Numbered from the stretch's first letter, positions 3,478 to 30,867 are shown. The stretch: DNA of 32,000 nucleotides from Microcystis aeruginosa NIES-843 (GCF_000010625.1 NC_010296.1:1410001-1442000); one strand, 5' to 3'. Program-made: numbers and translations. The notes: a model not told the origin generated them from the sequence alone.

Positions 3478-4536
3478 TTGTCCATCAGTGAAGATAAATA
3501 TCGTCGTCTGCGTCAGGAATTAATCGGGGGAATTTTTGCCCTGATTGTGGTGTTTTTGCTGGGTACGCTTTGGTATCATCTGATCGAGGGTTGGAGTTGG
3601 CTAGATTCGGCCTATATGACGATTAGTACCCTCGCTACCGTCGGTTTTGGCGAAATTAATCCCCTAGGTGAACGGGGACGACTGTTTACAATGGTTTTGA
3701 TCGTGATGGGAGTAATCACGATCGGTTATATTGTTAATCGCTTGACCGAAGCTTTAATTCAAGGCTATTTTCAAGAGGGACTCAAACAGAGACAGGAGAA
3801 ACGCGTGATCGATCGACTATCGGAACACTATATCATCTGTGGTTTGGGTCGCACGGGGAGACAGGTGGCGATCGAATTTTACGCCGAAAATATTCCTTTT
3901 GTAGTTATTGATACGGACCCCCTACAGGTAAATCGGGCCAAAGAATTAAATTATATTGTTGTTCAAGGAGATGCTACCTTAGATAAATCTTTACAAATGG
4001 CAGGAATCGAACGCGCTATTTGTATTGTGGCCGCTTTAACTTCCGATGCGGAGAATTTATATACAGTTTTGTCTGCTAAAACTCTTAATCCGAAAATCCG
4101 CGCCATTGCTAGGGCCAGTACCGAAGAAGCAGTACAAAAATTACAACGGGCCGGGGCCGATGCGGTGGTATCTCCCTATATTACCGGCGGTAGAAGATTA
4201 GCGGCCGCGGCCCTACGACCCCAGGTGATGGATTTTGTTGATGGGATTTTAACTGGAACCGATCGATCATTTTATATGGAAGAATTTTTAATCGATCCGA
4301 GGACTTGTCCCTGTGTCGGTTTAAGTCTTAGTCAAGCACATTTAAGATCTCGATCGGGGGCTTTAGTTTTGGCTATACGTCGCGCTGATGGTACGCTAAT
4401 CGGGGGACCGACTGGCGATACGGAATTAATGGCCGGGGATCTGTTAATTTGTATGGGAACGGCCGAACAATTACGCAGTTTAACTCAGATTTTAATCCCT
4501 ATGCGCTCGGATGGTTTACGTTTACCGAAGCATTAG
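3478..4536 (+). CDS. Two-TM potassium channel with cytoplasmic RCK (TrkA-N/TrkA-C) domains, MthK-like
   Basis: 352-aa ORF with a TTG start. K+ selectivity filter TVGFGE. Rossmann GxGxxG motif (ICGLGRTGRQVA). TrkA-C-like C-terminus. The start must lie upstream of TM1, so TTG 3478 is the only candidate. Confidence 0.85.
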   Translation: MSISEDKYRRLRQELIGGIFALIVVFLLGTLWYHLIEGWSWLDSAYMTISTLATVGFGEINPLGERGRLFTMVLIVMGVITIGYIVNRLTEALIQGYFQEGLKQRQEKRVIDRLSEHYIICGLGRTGRQVAIEFYAENIPFVVIDTDPLQVNRAKELNYIVVQGDATLDKSLQMAGIERAICIVAALTSDAENLYTVLSAKTLNPKIRAIARASTEEAVQKLQRAGADAVVSPYITGGRRLAAAALRPQVMDFVDGILTGTDRSFYMEEFLIDPRTCPCVGLSLSQAHLRSRSGALVLAIRRADGTLIGGPTGDTELMAGDLLICMGTAEQLRSLTQILIPMRSDGLRLPKH

Positions 4537-4947
4537 TTAAAGAATCGATAAAAAATCGGCTGGTAGCATTGCGGGAACAGGGGCAGCGGCAAAATCTCTT
4601 AGGTTTCGCATTATGATTATTTCTAGCTTTTCCGATTCAGCAACGGCACTGGTAACGGCATCTTCAAAATCTTTCATCTGACTTGCCAATGCTTGCCTAA
4701 TTATTGCATCTGTCACCCTAGCAACTTGCAAATTCTCTAGAAGAATTATCACCAACTTTCTTGAGCTTTCTCTTCCATTTTCTCTAGACAAAATATAATA
4801 AATATTAGTGACGGCATGACCAGAAATATATCCTTGAGTTTTACCTGTCTTAACTGTATTTAATGCTTGTACAGATGCTTGAAAATGTGGTTCACGCTTA
4901 CCCAAAACATCTAGCAATACATCACTATCGAATAGGACTCGTTTCAC
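4537..4947 (-). CDS. vapC: PIN-domain ribonuclease, type II toxin (VapC-like)
   Basis: 136-aa ORF with a GTG start. N-terminal LFDSDVLLDVL acidic motif typical of PIN domains, plus later conserved acidic residues. Overlaps the upstream ORF by 4 nt (GTGA). Confidence 0.75.
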   Translation of the reverse strand: MKRVLFDSDVLLDVLGKREPHFQASVQALNTVKTGKTQGYISGHAVTNIYYILSRENGRESSRKLVIILLENLQVARVTDAIIRQALASQMKDFEDAVTSAVAESEKLEIIIMRNLRDFAAAPVPAMLPADFLSIL

Positions 4948-5906
4948 CGATACTTCTCCACTAAATAATCAATATACGATTCTTTTGGGTCTTCTGGTCT
5001 TAAATCGACAACCCCCACTAAGTCTCTTGTCCAAGGATCAAGATCGCTTAAGTCATCTGTTAGGGAATGAGAAGTAGTTTCTGAGGATACATTCTGACGA
5101 AAAACACGCCCATATTCTAATGCTTTCTCAAAAACCTCCTGATCAGAAATTGATCCAGAAAGATTATCTAACCAGTTTTCAGACGAAGATTTTTCAGTTT
5201 CTAAATCGACCAAACCTGTTAAATTTTGTGTAGAGGCATCAATATCATTGAAATTATCTGTTAGGGAATGAGAGGTAGTTTCTGAGGATACATTCTTAGG
5301 ATTAAATCGCTCTTGAATTCTGAAAATTATTAAACTGTAATAGGCTCTCAGTTGGGTGACTAAAGATTTGTCAGTATCTTGGAAATATTCGGTTATAGTA
5401 CGATGAGAAACCGATAGAGCATTTTTAGCTCCCTGGTAAATTTGCTCTAATTCTGAATCGGCAAACATATCAATAAACACATCTATCGTTTCCGAGAGAA
5501 TGCGTGAACCTTCCACCACTCTGATTAAATCGGCTTTTTCCTCACCAGTCTTTCCCTCATTGATCTGAGCAAGGCTGATAAATAATTGATTATAGGCAGT
5601 AATTTGATTAGTAAATTGGTCTATATATTGGATTAATTCCAGTGCCGAAACCTCATTCTTATATTGTTCCCATACCTGAAACCATAGTTGATTAATTTGA
5701 CAAAATATATCGGCTCTTGCTTGATAAGTTTTAGAGTTATCCTTAACTTGCTCAAATAAAATTTTAGTTTCTTGTAGTAAATTATCCAGTATGATTCGAT
5801 CAGAATCGGTGACAATTCGATCGAGTTTATCTGTAATATCTTGCAGATTTTCTAACAAAAATTGTCCTAAATTTTCCCGTTCGACTGAACTTGGCAGACT
5901 ATTCAT
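4944..5906 (-). CDS. Hypothetical 320-aa protein in the antitoxin position of the PIN gene
   Basis: The ORF track shows 4944..6041, but the first 45 codons are the antisense read of the IS left end; the same peptide recurs in ORF 29466..29681. The native start is the ATG at 5906-5904 (MNSLPSSVERENL...). Removing the IS in silico restores AGGAGAGG-8nt-ATG. The C-terminus carries a 67-aa duplicated module (NVSSETTSHSLTD...). Confidence 0.6.
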   Translation of the reverse strand: MNSLPSSVERENLGQFLLENLQDITDKLDRIVTDSDRIILDNLLQETKILFEQVKDNSKTYQARADIFCQINQLWFQVWEQYKNEVSALELIQYIDQFTNQITAYNQLFISLAQINEGKTGEEKADLIRVVEGSRILSETIDVFIDMFADSELEQIYQGAKNALSVSHRTITEYFQDTDKSLVTQLRAYYSLIIFRIQERFNPKNVSSETTSHSLTDNFNDIDASTQNLTGLVDLETEKSSSENWLDNLSGSISDQEVFEKALEYGRVFRQNVSSETTSHSLTDDLSDLDPWTRDLVGVVDLRPEDPKESYIDYLVEKYR

Positions 5907-7227
5907 CGAAAATTTGGGTCTGAAACCCCGTCGTTCTACGACGGCTTTACTGTTAAATATTAGAACATTTACGAAATATATGCTAGAATGTGAGACATGG
6001 AAAAAGCCTATTCTTACCGATTTTACCCCACACCAGAACAAGAGTCGCTATTGCGGCGCACTTTGGGCTGTGTAAGATTGGTTTACAATAAGGCACTCCA
6101 TCTCAGAACACAAGCTTGGTATGAAAGACAAGAAAGAGTAGGATATACTGAAACTTCTTCAATGTTGACCGAGTGGAAAAAGCAAGAAGAATTAGACTTT
6201 CTCAATGAAGTAAGCTGTGTACCTTTACAACAAGGCTTAAGACATTTACAAACAGCTTTTACTAATTTCTTTGCTGGTCGTACTAAGTATCCTAACTTTA
6301 AGAAAAAACATCAGGGAGGAAGTGCCGAATTTACCAAATCTGCTTTTAAATTTAAAGACAAACAAATCTATTTAGCTAAATGCACAGAACCTTTACCTAT
6401 TCGGTGGTCAAGACAAATACCAGACGGATGTGAACCAAGCACAGTAACAGTCAGATTACATCCTTCTGGACGTTGGCATATTTCAATTAGATTTGATGAC
6501 CCAACGATTAAGCCTCTACCAGTAACAGATAAAGCCATCGGAATTGACTTAGGAATTAGTAGCCTCGTGATTACCAGCGATGGCGATAAAGTATCTAATC
6601 CCAAGCATTTTAAAAAGCATTATCGGAGACTGCGAAGAGCATCTAAAAGTCTTTCTCGAAAACAGAAAGGGTCAAAAAATCGGGAAAAAGCGAGAATCAA
6701 AGTAGCCAAGATTCACGCTCGAATCACCGATAACAGAAAAGACCATTTACACAAGCTAACCACTCAATTAGTTCGTGAAAACCAAACGATTGTGGTTGAG
6801 AATTTAGCCGTCAAGAATATGGTCAAAAACCCGAAATTATCTCAGGCAATATCTGATGTAAGCTGGGGAGAAATTACCCGACAATTAGCCTATAAATGCC
6901 GTTGGTATGGGAGAAATTACATCGAAATAGATAGATGGTTTCCTAGCTCTAAAAGGTGTAGTAATTGCGGGTATATTGCCCTTGAAAATGCCGTTAAATG
7001 TTCGAGAGTGGGACTGTCCAGACTGTGGGACTCACCATGACCGAGATATTAACGCCAGTAAAAATATTTTGGCCGCAGGGCTTGCGGTGTCAGTCCGGGT
7101 CGCGACTATAAGACCAGAACAGAGTAAATCTGTTAAGGCAGGTGCGAAAAATCCTTCGGGAAAGAAACAGAAACCTAAATCGTGAGGTTTGGGAATCACC
7201 GTCCGTTCACGGCGGTGAGGATGTCAA
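5907..7227 (+). mobile_element. IS200/IS605-family, IS1341-type (tnpB-only, no tnpA) insertion sequence, copy 1
   Basis: Collinear with 29547..30867. Both are preceded by TCAT (5903-5906 and 29543-29546) and both end in ...GGATGTCAA. The flanks diverge immediately outside these ends. The left end has a subterminal hairpin CCGTCG-ttcta-CGACGG. The right end has the hairpin CACCGTCCG-ttca-CGGCGGTG. No terminal inverted repeats and no Y1 transposase gene, as expected for this family. Confidence 0.9.
5997..7185 (+). pseudogene. tnpB: TnpB (OrfB) RNA-guided endonuclease, split by a +1 frameshift into 5997..7040 and 6976..7185
   Basis: N-terminal MEKAYSYRFYPTPEQ and the GIDLG RuvC-I motif. The first zinc-finger CxxC (CSNCG) lies in the upstream frame. 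The second CxxC and RuvC-III ([18 protein letters not shown]) lie in the +1 frame. Together the pieces give a TnpB of about 395 aa. Confidence 0.85.
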
Positions 7228-7362
7228 CGTATTTACCTCTCCTAAAACTGACGATCAAACAGAAATGAGTAGTCAAAATCATCAGCCCTAAACCTCGATT
7301 GTAACAATTTTAGGGTCTAAATCCTGTTTAAAAGGTATAGGAGAGGGGGAATTATAAATTAT

Positions 7363-7442
7363 GAAGTGGGGAAGTGGGGAAGTGGGGAAGTGGGGAAGTG
7401 GGGAAGTGGGGAAGTAGGGAAGTGGGGAAGTAGGGAAGTGGG
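7363..7442. repeat. Tandem octamer array (GAAGTGGG) x10
   Basis: Counted by hand: 10 units, two of them the variant GAAGTAGG. Confidence 0.95.
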
Positions 7443-7460: not shown

Positions 7461-7513
<53 letters not shown>

Positions 7514-7639
7514 TTGACTCGGAGACTACTGGCTCCTTGCTCCTCAATCTAGCGTCTGTGAGGAATTGAGAAATTGAGGATGATTTGATAGGATGTTAGT
7601 ACAATCGGGGAATAGTAAAGAAAAAACCCCCTATTGCTC

Positions 7640-8956
7640 ATGAGTCAAAATCCCAATTCTTCCTCGCGACCACTGCAGCCGCTGCCGGTTCCCTCCATGC
7701 CGATACCTCCCTCAGAAATCACGGGAACCAGCACGGGGACAACTCAAGAAATGACGCAACAAGTGGCGACACCGACCAAAAACGTGCCGAATATGCCGCA
7801 AAATGGTCAAATTTACGCCCCACGTCCTCCCCAAAATCGCGCTCCCAGTCAGGCTGCTTCTCCCCAAACCCCACCCCGGCCGGGTCGCGCTCCCAATCAA
7901 CCCACCTTAGAACATTTGATCCGGATGGCCTTTGATCGGGGTTATTCGGACGTTCACCTAGGAGTTGGAGAACAACCCCGGATGCGGGATCGTGGTGAAA
8001 TGATTATTCTCAACTATCCTGAAATTGACATCAACACTTTTTATAGTTGGTTACGGGAAATCCTAGGAGAAGAAGAAATCCTTCGCTTTAAAAAAGATCT
8101 AGAGTTTGACGGTGCAACTCAGTACGAATTCGCTAGGGTGCGGATTAATATCTTTGAAAGTCTGCGCGGTCCGGGGATGGTTTTGCGTCTAATTCCCCTG
8201 AAAATCCTCACTGTGGAACAATTGGGCTTACCGGCTGTGTTCCGGAATGTGTGCGATGTGCATAAGGGATTGATTTTAATCACCGGTCCGACGGGTTCAG
8301 GGAAATCCACCACCCTAGCAGCCATGGTCGATTACATAAATAAAGAACACGCCAAACATATTATCACCATCGAAGACCCGATCGAATTTGTCCATCAAAG
8401 TCGTCGCAGTTTGATCAAACAAAAGGAAGTGGGAATACACACCCATGAGTTCGATAATGCCCTAAAAGCCTCTTTGCGGGAAGACCCAGATATTATTCTG
8501 GTGGGGGAGATGCGGGACAAATCCACCGTTAATACTGCCCTGAAAGCTGCCCAAACTGGTCACTTAGTTATGGGAACCCTGCACACCAACAGCGCCGTTA
8601 AAACCCTGGAGCGGATTTTAACTCTTTATACCGCCGAGGAACGGGAATCGATGCGGGTGGCGATCGCAGAATCCTTGGTTTGTATTATTTCCCAGGGTTT
8701 ATGTCGCACCACCGACAGTAAACGGACCGCTTTTCACGATATTCTCGTCAACACAGAAACCGTCAAAGATTACATTTGCAGCGGCAAAAATGACGAAATT
8801 ATCGAATTAATGAGAGATGGCGAATATGATGGCATGATTACCACTAATCAATCTCTGTTTAACCTCTATCAAGAGGGACGGATTAGCGATGAGGTCGCCC
8901 TGGAAATGTCCCCGGTTCCCAATGAAATGGCGATGATGCTGCGGGGTAGAATCTAG
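7640..8956 (+). CDS. pilT: Type IV pilus retraction ATPase PilT family (PilT2-like, with a Pro/Gln-rich N-terminal extension)
   Basis: Walker A GPTGSGKSTTLAAM, Asp box IEDPIEF, Walker B ILVGEMRD, His box GHLVMGTLHTNSA. The track starts at TTG 7634; ATG 7640 is more likely. About 90 aa of low-complexity P/Q/T-rich N-terminus. Confidence 0.85.
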   Translation: MSQNPNSSSRPLQPLPVPSMPIPPSEITGTSTGTTQEMTQQVATPTKNVPNMPQNGQIYAPRPPQNRAPSQAASPQTPPRPGRAPNQPTLEHLIRMAFDRGYSDVHLGVGEQPRMRDRGEMIILNYPEIDINTFYSWLREILGEEEILRFKKDLEFDGATQYEFARVRINIFESLRGPGMVLRLIPLKILTVEQLGLPAVFRNVCDVHKGLILITGPTGSGKSTTLAAMVDYINKEHAKHIITIEDPIEFVHQSRRSLIKQKEVGIHTHEFDNALKASLREDPDIILVGEMRDKSTVNTALKAAQTGHLVMGTLHTNSAVKTLERILTLYTAEERESMRVAIAESLVCIISQGLCRTTDSKRTAFHDILVNTETVKDYICSGKNDEIIELMRDGEYDGMITTNQSLFNLYQEGRISDEVALEMSPVPNEMAMMLRGRI

Positions 8957-29265: not shown

Positions 29266-29546
29266 GAGTTATACCAAGTAAAAAGTAAAAGGGGAAATAA
29301 GCTCAACATACCGCCGCTCGGCGTTGCGCTGGCAGAAGAAAGACAAGGCCGATTTTATCACGATGGATGTCAGCTAGTTAAGCTGTTCTTAATTCAAATT
29401 GCTTGTTGAGATCAGGCAAGGGGGGGCTAATCTCAGAATAAGCGGTTTAAATACGTCTTAGCTTATCACTTGAAATGCCCACGCGGATCACAAAATTGGC
29501 CAATTGTCAATAGGGTTTGAGATGCTCTCACCCTGTCGCTCGTCAT

Positions 29547-30867
29547 CGAAAATTTGGGTCTGAAACCCCGTCGTTCTACGACGGCTTTACTGTTAAATAT
29601 TAGAACATTTACGAAATATATGCTAGAATGTGAGACATGGAAAAAGCCTACTCGTTCCGATTTTACCCCACACCCGAACAAGAGTCGCTATTGCGGCGCA
29701 CTTTGGGCTGTGTAAGATTGGTTTACAACAAAGCTCTCCATGTCAGAACACAAGCATGGTACGAAAGACAAGAAAGAGTAGGCTACGCTCAAACTTCTTC
29801 AATGCTAACCGATTGGAAAAAGCAAGAAGAATTAGACTTTCTCAATGAGGTAAGCTGTGTACCTTTACAACAAGGGTTAAGACATTTACAAACAGCTTTT
29901 ACTAATTTCTTTGCTGGTCGTACTAAGTATCCCAACTTTAAGAAAAAACATCAAGGAGGAAGTGCCGAATTTACCAAATCAGCCTTTAAATTTAAAGACA
30001 AACAAATCTATTTAGCCAAATGCACAGAACCTTTACCTATTCGATGGTCAAGAAAAATACCAGAAAGCTGTGAACCAAGCACAGTAACAGTCAGATTACA
30101 TCCCTCAGGACGTTGGCATATTTCAATTAGATTTGATGACCCAACGATTAAGCCTTTACCAGTAACAGATAAAGCCATTGGAATTGACTTAGGAATTAGT
30201 AGCCTCGTGATTACCAGCGATGGCGATAAAGTGTCTAATCCCAAGCATTTTAAAAAGCATTATCGGAGACTGCGAAAGGCCCAAAAAAGCCTTTCTAGAA
30301 AACAGAAAGGGTCAAAAAATCGGGAAAAAGCAAGAATCAAAGTAGCCAAGATTCACGCTCAAATCACCGATAGCAGAAAAGACCATTTACATAAGCTAAC
30401 CACTCAATTAGTTCGTGAAAACCAAACGGTTGTGGTTGAGAACTTAGCCGTCAAGAATATGGTCAAAAACCCGAAATTATCTCAGGCAATATCTGATGTA
30501 AGCTGGGGAGAAATTACCCGACAATTAGCCTATAAATGCCGTTGGTATGGAAGAAATTACATCGAAATAGATAGATGGTTTCCTAGCTCTAAAAGGTGTA
30601 GTAATTGCGGGTATATTGCCCTTGAAAATGCCGTTAAATGTTCGAGAATGGGACTGTCCAGACTGTGGAACACACCATGACCGAGATATTAACGCCAGTA
30701 AAAATATTTTGGCCGCAGGGCTTGCGGTGTCAGTCCGGGTCGCGACCATAAGACCAGAACAGAGTAAATCTGTTAAGGCAGGTGCGAAAAATCCTTCGGG
30801 AAAGAAGCAGAAACCTAAATCGTGAGGTTTGGGAATCACCGTCCGTTCACGGCGGTGAGGATGTCAA
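29547..30867 (+). mobile_element. IS200/IS605-family, IS1341-type (tnpB-only) insertion sequence, copy 2
   Basis: Same length and ends as copy 1. Preceded by TCAT (29543-29546) and ends in GGATGTCAA (30867). The 90-bp 5' leader and 42-bp 3' trailer show no differences by eye, while the tnpB 5' half differs at several percent of positions. Confidence 0.9.
29637..30825 (+). pseudogene. tnpB: TnpB (OrfB) RNA-guided endonuclease with the same +1 frameshift as copy 1 (ORFs 29637..30680 and 30616..30825)
   Basis: 347-aa and 69-aa ORFs. There are 13 mostly conservative replacements relative to copy 1 in the upstream part. The downstream 69-aa peptide is identical. Confidence 0.85.

Follow-up and report, generated by a model that had tools for sequence, protein, structure and literature searches.

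The locus analysed here raises the question of whether a gene that is interrupted by a frame break can still be translated across this break. The window, by which we mean the whole stretch of 32,000 nucleotides of the Microcystis aeruginosa NIES-843 genome (GCF_000010625.1, NC_010296.1:1410001-1442000), carries two copies of a TnpB-only insertion sequence (IS) of the IS200/IS605 family (IS1341-type), and in both copies tnpB is interrupted by the same +1 frame break. The initial annotation had taken the synonymous character of the nucleotide differences downstream of the break as a sign that the downstream frame is translated, had named programmed +1 frameshifting or transcriptional slippage as candidate mechanisms and had stated that simple decay does not fit. 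Our comparison with related elements suggests a different answer. We consider it very likely that the break is an ordinary disabling allele of tnpB, which has been moved among paralogous copies by recombination, and not a programmed frameshift.

The two elements (copy 1, W1; copy 2, W2; L numbers denote the loci of relatives) are each 1325 bp long and collinear at an offset of 23640 nt, and they differ by 54 substitutions and no indels. Their flanks are unrelated, and the coordinates of all features are summarized in Table 1. W1 and W2 have no differences between 5903 and 6010, nor in the 94-nt left end. About 25 Microcystis elements match copy 1 over its full length at 92-94% identity. The 347-aa open reading frames (ORFs) of the two copies correspond exactly to the M. 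aeruginosa NIES-843 proteins BAG01398.1 and BAG01423.1. ISMae10, an element of the IS605 family with a length of 1330 bp, is present in this genome in 49 copies and is its most numerous IS605-type element (Kaneko et al., 2007; PMC2779907, Table 1). Judged by length (1330 vs 1325 bp), family and host genome, both window elements are probably ISMae10. The element carries no tnpA and would therefore have to be mobilised in trans.

Both tnpB copies indeed share a +1 frame break, which separates the two CxxC halves of the zinc finger. The first half (CSNCG) is encoded in the upstream frame (frame 0) as initially annotated, but its position had been given as 6958-6972, which is one base off the actual coordinates (6957-6971). 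The +1 frame is open only from 6931, as had been noted, since a TAG is located at 6928-6930, and it continues up to a TGA at 7183-7185. The last ~19 residues of the 347-aa ORF are out of frame. When one base of the CCC at 6979-6981 is deleted (conceptual repair), a protein of 395 aa results, in which PF12323 (HTH_OrfB_IS605), PF01385 (OrfB_IS605) and PF07282 (Cas12f1-like TNB, zinc ribbon) are all detected above the curated Pfam cut-offs. This repaired protein aligns with ISDra2 TnpB (8EXA, 8H1J) with an E-value of 5e-74 over residues 2-364, and the alignment extends through the zinc finger and RuvC-III. In neither window copy is the RuvC D-E-D triad contained in one polypeptide: the first D (in IGIDLG) and the E (in VVENL) belong to frame 0, and the second D (in HHDRDINA) belongs to the +1 frame. 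In the intact 395-aa relatives, all three residues lie within a single polypeptide.

The site of the break became apparent when the junction was aligned in 80 genomic loci, which were collected by a genome scan with one genome per species. The initial annotation had placed the shift between about 6973 and 7012, and comparison with intact relatives narrowed it down to 6980-6983. Here, the window copies read TATATTGC-CCTT-GAAAATGCCG, whereas intact Microcystis copies read TATATTGC-TGA-GAAAATGCCG (YIAEKMP), so that the linker between the CxxC halves is 28 nt long in the window copies vs 27 nt in the intact ones. ATTGCTGAGAAAATG or another in-frame variant was found in about 24 Microcystis copies with sequence at this site, which are 92-96% identical to the window copies, and the full 395-aa ORF is present in 14 Microcystis copies from the genome scan. 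All other cyanobacterial junction variants tabulated have the 27-nt linker, and 28 nt were only found in GCCCTTGAAAATG alleles. The lesion is therefore a derived replacement of three bases by four and not a change in the length of a homopolymer.

The lesion is not restricted to the window. It was also found in the complete genome of M. ichthyoblabe FBCC-A1114 (L048), where this locus is the sole carrier among the retained copies, and in a metagenome-assembled genome (MAG) of M. wesenbergii (L053). A 21-mer specific for the allele occurs in 12 true metagenome contigs, and four more contigs encode an identical 65-aa C-terminal ORF. Two of the 14 metagenome matches to the 21-mer (L084, L085) showed no similarity beyond the pattern and were dropped as chance matches. 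Altogether, 13 distinct 3' flanks bear the frameshift allele. Thus, the allele is real, heritable and derived, it is a minority allele in Microcystis and not a universal property of the element, and it is spread over many sites. It arose once and is now present at at least 13 insertion sites in several Microcystis strains and blooms. As for its origin, ATTGCCCTTGAATTGCCG, the in-frame variant of one Microcoleus lineage (L023), agrees with the frameshift allele in its first 12 bases. The allele might have been created by a misaligned recombination event at GAA, and the flanking markers fit a local complex mutation equally well.

How, then, is the coding-like pattern downstream of the lesion to be understood? 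The five downstream differences between the window copies (7008 G/A, 7029 G/A, 7032 T/A, 7107 T/C, 7167 A/G) all fall on third positions of the +1 frame and are synonymous there, and the first three would lead to V/M, D/N and S/T exchanges in frame 0. These details of the initial annotation were reproduced, as was its count of 13 amino acid differences upstream of the shift. If mutation were uniform and neutral, five third positions out of five would have a probability of 0.004, and the pattern is thus not a matter of chance. However, for 48 of the 54 W1/W2 differences, among them 7008, 7029 and 7032, both alleles are present among intact copies. The private differences, six in number, fall on codon positions 3, 1, 2, 1, 3 and 3. 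Polymorphism that is shared throughout the family is biased to third positions (41:33:123 over the three codon positions, upstream), whereas singletons in copies with an intact junction are evenly spread (26:32:32). Because of this contrast, selection is visible only on lineages that keep propagating and not on individual insertions. The W1/W2 differences are mostly drawn from variation that was pre-filtered by selection in functional lineages, and they are therefore uninformative on selection after the frameshift.

That variants can be exchanged between frameshifted and intact copies is evident from the family as a whole. When 300-nt segments were compared, the nearest neighbour of W1, W2 and L048 switched from segment to segment and was often an intact copy from another genome. 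Between 6501 and 6800, for example, W1 differs at 9 positions from L007 vs 16 from W2, and W2 differs at 6 positions from L002. All four gametes were observed in 61% of the informative site pairs (185 biallelic informative sites). A statistic similar to the pairwise homoplasy index (PHI) amounted to 0.511 vs 0.613 ± 0.009 after permutation and was not reached in any of 1000 permutations, which means that neighbouring sites are more compatible with each other. When the frameshift itself was treated as a character, it was incompatible with 68 of the 185 informative sites, including 6947, 7008 and 7029. Downstream of the lesion, the block alleles ATAAGA/TGATGA, TCTGTTAAGG/ACTGGGGCGG and GAAAAATCCTTCGGG/GGAACCCCGCAAGGG combine in various ways on frameshifted and intact copies, and among carriers the frameshift has also recombined with a fourth block (GTCCGGGTCGCGAC vs GTCTGTAGAGCGAC). 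The CGGGTCGCG form of this block, which replaces CTGTAGAGCG at 7095-7103 and 30735-30743, was found in the window copies and in half of the metagenomic frameshift carriers (it is present in L081, L082, L083, L086, L088 and L091). It occurs on no intact Microcystis copy and is, among Microcystis, confined to carriers; an intact Oscillatoriales copy (L057) also has it. The density of W1/W2 differences falls at about position 6804 from 48 in 901 to 6 in 424 nucleotides (P = 0.0005; reached in 5 of 300 permutations), which fits a younger 3' segment, including the lesion, that is common to W1 and W2. Taken together, these data indicate that the element family is strongly mosaic through recombination, and they support gene conversion involving intact copies, which had been one of the possibilities put forward initially.

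The same data bear on simple vertical decay, in which the frameshift would predate the split of the two copies, recombination would play no role and the synonymous pattern would be due to chance. The small number of downstream sites involved (only five) speaks for this scenario. However, the differences over the whole element show a strong third-position bias and are also present among intact copies, which is impossible by neutral decay after a shared frameshift, and recombination is pervasive according to the four-gamete and PHI-like tests. Strictly vertical decay without recombination is contradicted by these findings, and we regard it as quite improbable. The initial statement that simple decay does not fit is not supported as a whole, and additional lesions are common in frameshift carriers (see below).

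The two downstream differences that remain, 7107 and 7167, lie in a second gene, which overlaps the 3' end of tnpB. When the last 190 nt of 50 relatives (48 distinct sequences) were aligned and folded with RNAalifold, we obtained a consensus structure of an omega-RNA scaffold with 43 pairs, 17 of which show compensatory double changes; five of the eight helices have compensatory changes. The proportion of paired cells was 97.2% vs 33-41% in slid controls, the number of double-change cells was 118 vs 7-21, and none of 500 shuffles reached the observed values. A scan of 5800-7400 against Rfam at E <= 1 returned no family, and the omega-RNA is therefore inferred from covariation. It overlaps the last ~47 codons of tnpB, and the predicted guide is the flank from 7228 on (CGTATTTACCTCTCC... 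in copy 1, GACTAAGTAGCTGG... in copy 2).

Position 7107 (C/T) corresponds to column 90 of a covarying helix (partner 124), and the exchange converts a C-G into a U-G pair. At 7167, either A or G is found across the family. We had also considered 7167 as pair-preserving, since column 152 pairs with column 81 as U-G or U-A in the family, but this assignment was withdrawn: column 81 is a G in W1 and W2 because of the CGGGTCGCG block, and neither allele pairs with it. Thus, only 7107 is pair-preserving. The CGGGTCGCG block disrupts two predicted pairs of omega-RNA helix 3. In the tail of intact copies (7091-7185), polymorphism is distributed 9:8:6 over the codon positions, and the alleles of the tail blocks alter the peptide freely (KNPS vs EPRK) while they exchange a UUCG tetraloop hairpin for GCAA. 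Moreover, the TGATGA allele, which stands for ATAAGA at the equivalent of 7108-7113 in L008, L020 and L048, introduces two in-frame stops and gives 370-aa proteins in the otherwise intact L008 and L020. These data suggest that the last 25 residues of TnpB are dispensable as protein. The tail is constrained as RNA and not as protein, and therefore the synonymy at 7107 and 7167 carries no weight.

Two further features of the RNA were observed. An extra hairpin of ~17 nt (7146-7162; columns 129-146) is present in Microcystis and a few other lineages and missing from most other cyanobacterial relatives; it exists as two alternative modules with a UUCG-type (AAUCCUUCGGGA) or a GCAA-type loop (CCCCGCAAGGGA) and accounts for protein lengths of 395 vs 390 aa. 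In addition, a long-range helix is predicted between 7045-7050 and 7220-7225 (columns 26-31 with 208-213), which would join the RuvC-III coding GAUAUU to GGAUGUC of the right end. It is 95% paired over the 48 distinct sequences with one-sided changes only, and its existence is plausible but not proven.

These observations can be combined to the following scenario. The replacement of TGA by CCTT adds one base in the zinc-finger linker, and the reading frame is thereby lost for the second CxxC and for the aspartate of RuvC-III. In IS200/IS605 elements, TnpB is not required for mobilisation in trans. The allele could spread since TnpB would be dispensable for TnpA-driven transposition in trans, by which these elements are presumably mobilised. 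Family copies would constantly exchange segments, with gene conversion as the putative shuffling mechanism. Nearly all W1/W2 differences are alleles that segregate in intact paralogues as well and lie beside the lesion via recombination or ancestry, and the remaining downstream changes are located in the overlapping omega-RNA gene, where constraint acts at the RNA level. The coding-like pattern thus results from shared, pre-filtered polymorphism together with omega-RNA constraint. The claim that the downstream frame is translated loses its basis, since 7008, 7029 and 7032 are shared with intact paralogues and 7107 and 7167 lie in the omega-RNA.

If the downstream frame were maintained by selection, this should be visible in variants that are private to frameshift carriers, and we compared 16 carriers with the pool of intact copies. 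In the zinc-finger/RuvC-III segment (6985-7090), the carrier-private variants comprise the exchanges N>D, T>R and H>D and a single synonymous change at a first position. In this larger set of copies, three of the four changes are thus non-synonymous and none falls on a third position, but the numbers are small. Upstream of the lesion, we counted 16 synonymous and 14 non-synonymous carrier-private changes, a ratio that is close to relaxed constraint when under-sampling of the family polymorphism is allowed for. Additional damage was found in several carriers. One codon of CPDCG is lost in L082. Insertions resembling miniature inverted-repeat transposable elements (MITEs) interrupt the tnpB ORF of L081, L082, L091 and L093 at a TAGATAG site (equivalent to ~6929-6935); they are nested in L082 and L093 and contain a CCCCACA repeat. 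L089 and L092 are truncated at ~7069 and L086 on both sides. Since numbers are small and intact copies also decay, the changes in carriers are an absence of support for a function of the downstream frame and not a proof of decay.

Several points weigh against our reading. Faster decay of carriers, which we had considered as an additional argument, was given up, since singletons look neutral in both classes; the even spread of singletons in copies with an intact site means that the comparison does not discriminate and that faster carrier decay is not demonstrable. The private downstream changes are few (four in the zinc-finger/RuvC-III segment, two in W1). Both window copies are otherwise undamaged, with an upstream ORF that is open over 347 aa and a downstream frame that is open to the normal stop, and the protein sequence encoded in the +1 frame is identical in both. 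The intra-genome conversion donors are putative and are deduced from the published copy number, which implies ~47 further ISMae10 copies in NIES-843. Finally, the success of the allele (at least 13 sites) is compatible with some retained function, but it is not evidence for it.

Such a retained function might reside in a split or truncated protein. The 347-aa and 65-aa products could reassemble, or the 347-aa product alone could act as a nuclease-dead, omega-RNA-guided binder (TldR-like) or as a dominant-negative regulator. The 65-aa ORF in the +1 frame, which comprises zinc ribbon and RuvC-III, begins with an ATG at 6988 and is independently annotated as 'zinc ribbon domain-containing protein' (WP_432760604.1), the 347-aa product retains the helix-turn-helix (HTH)/REC, WED and RuvC-I/II parts, and the omega-RNA region is largely kept save for the two pairs broken by CGGGTCGCG. 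However, the annotation of the small ORF is automatic, and we recognised no ribosome-binding site ahead of 6988 when the sequence was read. The break splits the four-cysteine zinc finger, and neither product is expected to fold this finger alone. The CGGGTCGCG block of W1 and W2 breaks two predicted omega-RNA pairs. The 16:14 ratio upstream of the lesion is, with under-sampling taken into account, close to that under relaxed constraint, and MITE insertions, deletions and truncations are frequent among carriers. We therefore consider a functional split or truncated protein very doubtful. The more general idea that the allele persists because it is useful, either by low-level +1 recoding that throttles TnpB or by a nuclease-dead 347-aa binder that dampens or redirects a family of ~49 copies, is hardly probable either. 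If it were true, the window elements would represent an early step toward nuclease-dead RNA-guided regulators inside a mobile element, which means a mobile, pre-domestication analogue of TldRs.

Another reading assumes that full-length TnpB is restored at GCC-CUU-GAA-AAU, either by a programmed +1 shift of the ribosome or by transcriptional slippage, and that the allele is kept for its effect on TnpB dosage. With a +1 shift after GCC, the product would indeed reach the normal length and contain one E>L exchange; in both window copies the downstream frame is open and all five differences are synonymous there, and the allele has reached at least 13 sites. Yet the junction itself offers little for recoding. 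GCC CUU GAA AAU contains no stop or rare codon behind a slippery codon in the P site, an arrangement that would be expected from the established prfB, antizyme and Ty sites; judged by the codons, neither tRNA-Ala nor tRNA-Leu would re-pair well after a +1 shift. The nearest GGG is located 9 nt upstream of the junction; in prfB, the Shine-Dalgarno-like spacing is 3 nt, and the GGG is therefore too distant for a stimulator of the RF2 type. RNA polymerase slippage requires a homopolymer run of roughly at least 7 nt, and the longest run at the junction is A4 (6985-6988), which is too short. Folding of 6960-7070 revealed no stable structure near the junction (z = -1.18). The shift site is not conserved either: there is one out-of-frame allele (GCCCTTGAAAATG) and every other junction variant is in frame, including most Microcystis copies and all other cyanobacterial relatives. 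The five differences are accounted for by shared polymorphism and the omega-RNA, the carrier-private downstream changes are mostly non-synonymous, and many carriers have additional lesions. A full-text search retrieved no report of programmed frameshifting in tnpB, with one co-mention of both terms left unassessed. One phylogenetic paper on TnpB elements mentions neither frameshift nor pseudogene, gene conversion or recombination. Thus, we give very little credence to programmed frameshifting or slippage. The chance of a sequencing or assembly artefact at both loci is virtually nil, since a 4-for-3 replacement is not a homopolymer miscount and the identical 21-mer recurs in an independent complete genome as well as in MAGs and JGI/ENA/NCBI metagenome contigs of different projects.

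Table 1. Position of the two insertion sequence copies, their tnpB reading frames, the lesion and the structured elements in the window
Feature	Position	Strand	Evidence or content
IS copy 1, TnpB-only IS200/IS605 (IS1341-type)	5903..7227	+	W1/W2 similarity borders fall at 5903 and 7227
IS copy 2, other insertion site	29543..30867	+	Flanks differ from copy 1 on both sides
Left-end hairpin CCGTCGTTCTACGACGG	5928..5944	+	Direct sequence reading
Copy 1 tnpB, frame-0 ORF, 347 aa, BAG01398.1	5997..7040	+	HTH, OrfB_IS605, RuvC-I/II, first CxxC
Copy 2 tnpB, frame-0 ORF, 347 aa, BAG01423.1	29637..30680	+	
Lesion copy 1, CCTT where intact Microcystis copies read TGA	6980..6983	+	Alignment to 80 genomic loci
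Lesion copy 2, CCTT for TGA	30620..30623	+	
Copy 1 tnpB remainder in +1 frame: CPDCG, RuvC-III (HHDRDINA), C-terminal tail	6982..7185	+	Aligns to ISDra2 TnpB
Copy 2 tnpB remainder in +1 frame	30622..30825	+	
Omega-RNA (reRNA) scaffold copy 1, 3' end of tnpB and right end	~7045..7227	+	Covariation, eight helices
Omega-RNA scaffold copy 2	30685..30867	+	Second row of the same alignment
Right-end hairpin CACCGTCCG-TTCA-CGGCGGTG (omega-RNA helix 8)	7197..7217	+	Compensatory A-U to G-C / C-G, columns 184/204, in 23 of 48 distinct sequences

The surroundings of the elements also deserve a short description. Two long minus-strand ORFs (4944-6041 and 29466-29681) begin within the left ends of the elements and extend into the flank. 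Each copy has an ATG (CAT on the plus strand, 5904-5906 and 29544-29546) exactly at the left similarity boundary, and because of this position the 320-aa gene that flanks copy 1 may start at the IS junction. Judged from their translations, the neighbours of copy 1 resemble ordinary chromosomal genes: a TrkA-like or K+ channel-like ORF (3478-4536), a possible PIN/VapC-like ORF on the minus strand (4537-4947) and a PilT-like ATPase ORF (7634-8956). Past copy 1, at a distance of about 135 nt from its right end, lie two microsatellite-like arrays with perfect or nearly perfect repeats (7363-7442 and 7461-7520), which consist of 10 copies of GAAGTGGG followed by 7.6 copies of TCTCCTG.

The frame break, very likely an ordinary pseudogene allele, serves mainly as a warning: when two copies from a recombining multi-copy family have a lesion in common, differences that look synonymous are no evidence of read-through. 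Such differences may have been acquired from functional paralogues, and a gene for an overlapping RNA imposes a constraint of its own. For the mining of cyanobacterial TnpB proteins for genome editing, the well-supported omega-RNA structure, the alternative tetraloop modules and the natural 370-aa stop variant may be of use.

Compared with known systems, the window elements resemble ISDra2, the TnpB of which (8EXA, 8H1J, 8BF8) shows the same domain order with HTH/REC, WED, a split RuvC with D-E-D and a CxxC...CxxC zinc finger. In both systems, a structured RNA overlaps the 3'-terminal part of tnpB together with the right end, and a flank-derived guide adjoins it. Unlike ISDra2, the window copies are interrupted between the zinc-finger halves and lack tnpA, and the Microcystis omega-RNA has the additional 17-nt hairpin. 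TldRs, which in work by Wiegand and colleagues from 2024 are reportedly nuclease-dead, TnpB-derived RNA-guided regulators without active RuvC, are similar insofar as the 347-aa product would be devoid of RuvC-III. However, TldRs are domesticated single-copy genes with conserved context and intact ORFs, whereas the window elements are mobile and occur at many sites, and many carriers are decayed. Programmed frameshifts of the -1 type are used by IS1 and IS3, and the RF2 gene prfB shifts by +1 at CUU UGA. The window elements share with these systems two overlapping frames that need a one-base shift, and a CUU codon is present at their junction. They differ from them in the lack of conservation, of a slippery heptamer, of an A-run and of a stop or hungry codon, and also in the lack of a correctly spaced Shine-Dalgarno-like element or a downstream structure. 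A further correspondence is that to concerted evolution and gene conversion in multi-copy IS families, in which the same mosaic blocks and four gametes at most site pairs are seen. As there, several backbones carry the lesion, and a bias to synonymous sites is seen in old shared polymorphism, while recent singletons look neutral. The only additional feature of the window elements, when compared with other concertedly evolving repeats, is the constraint imposed by the overlapping omega-RNA.

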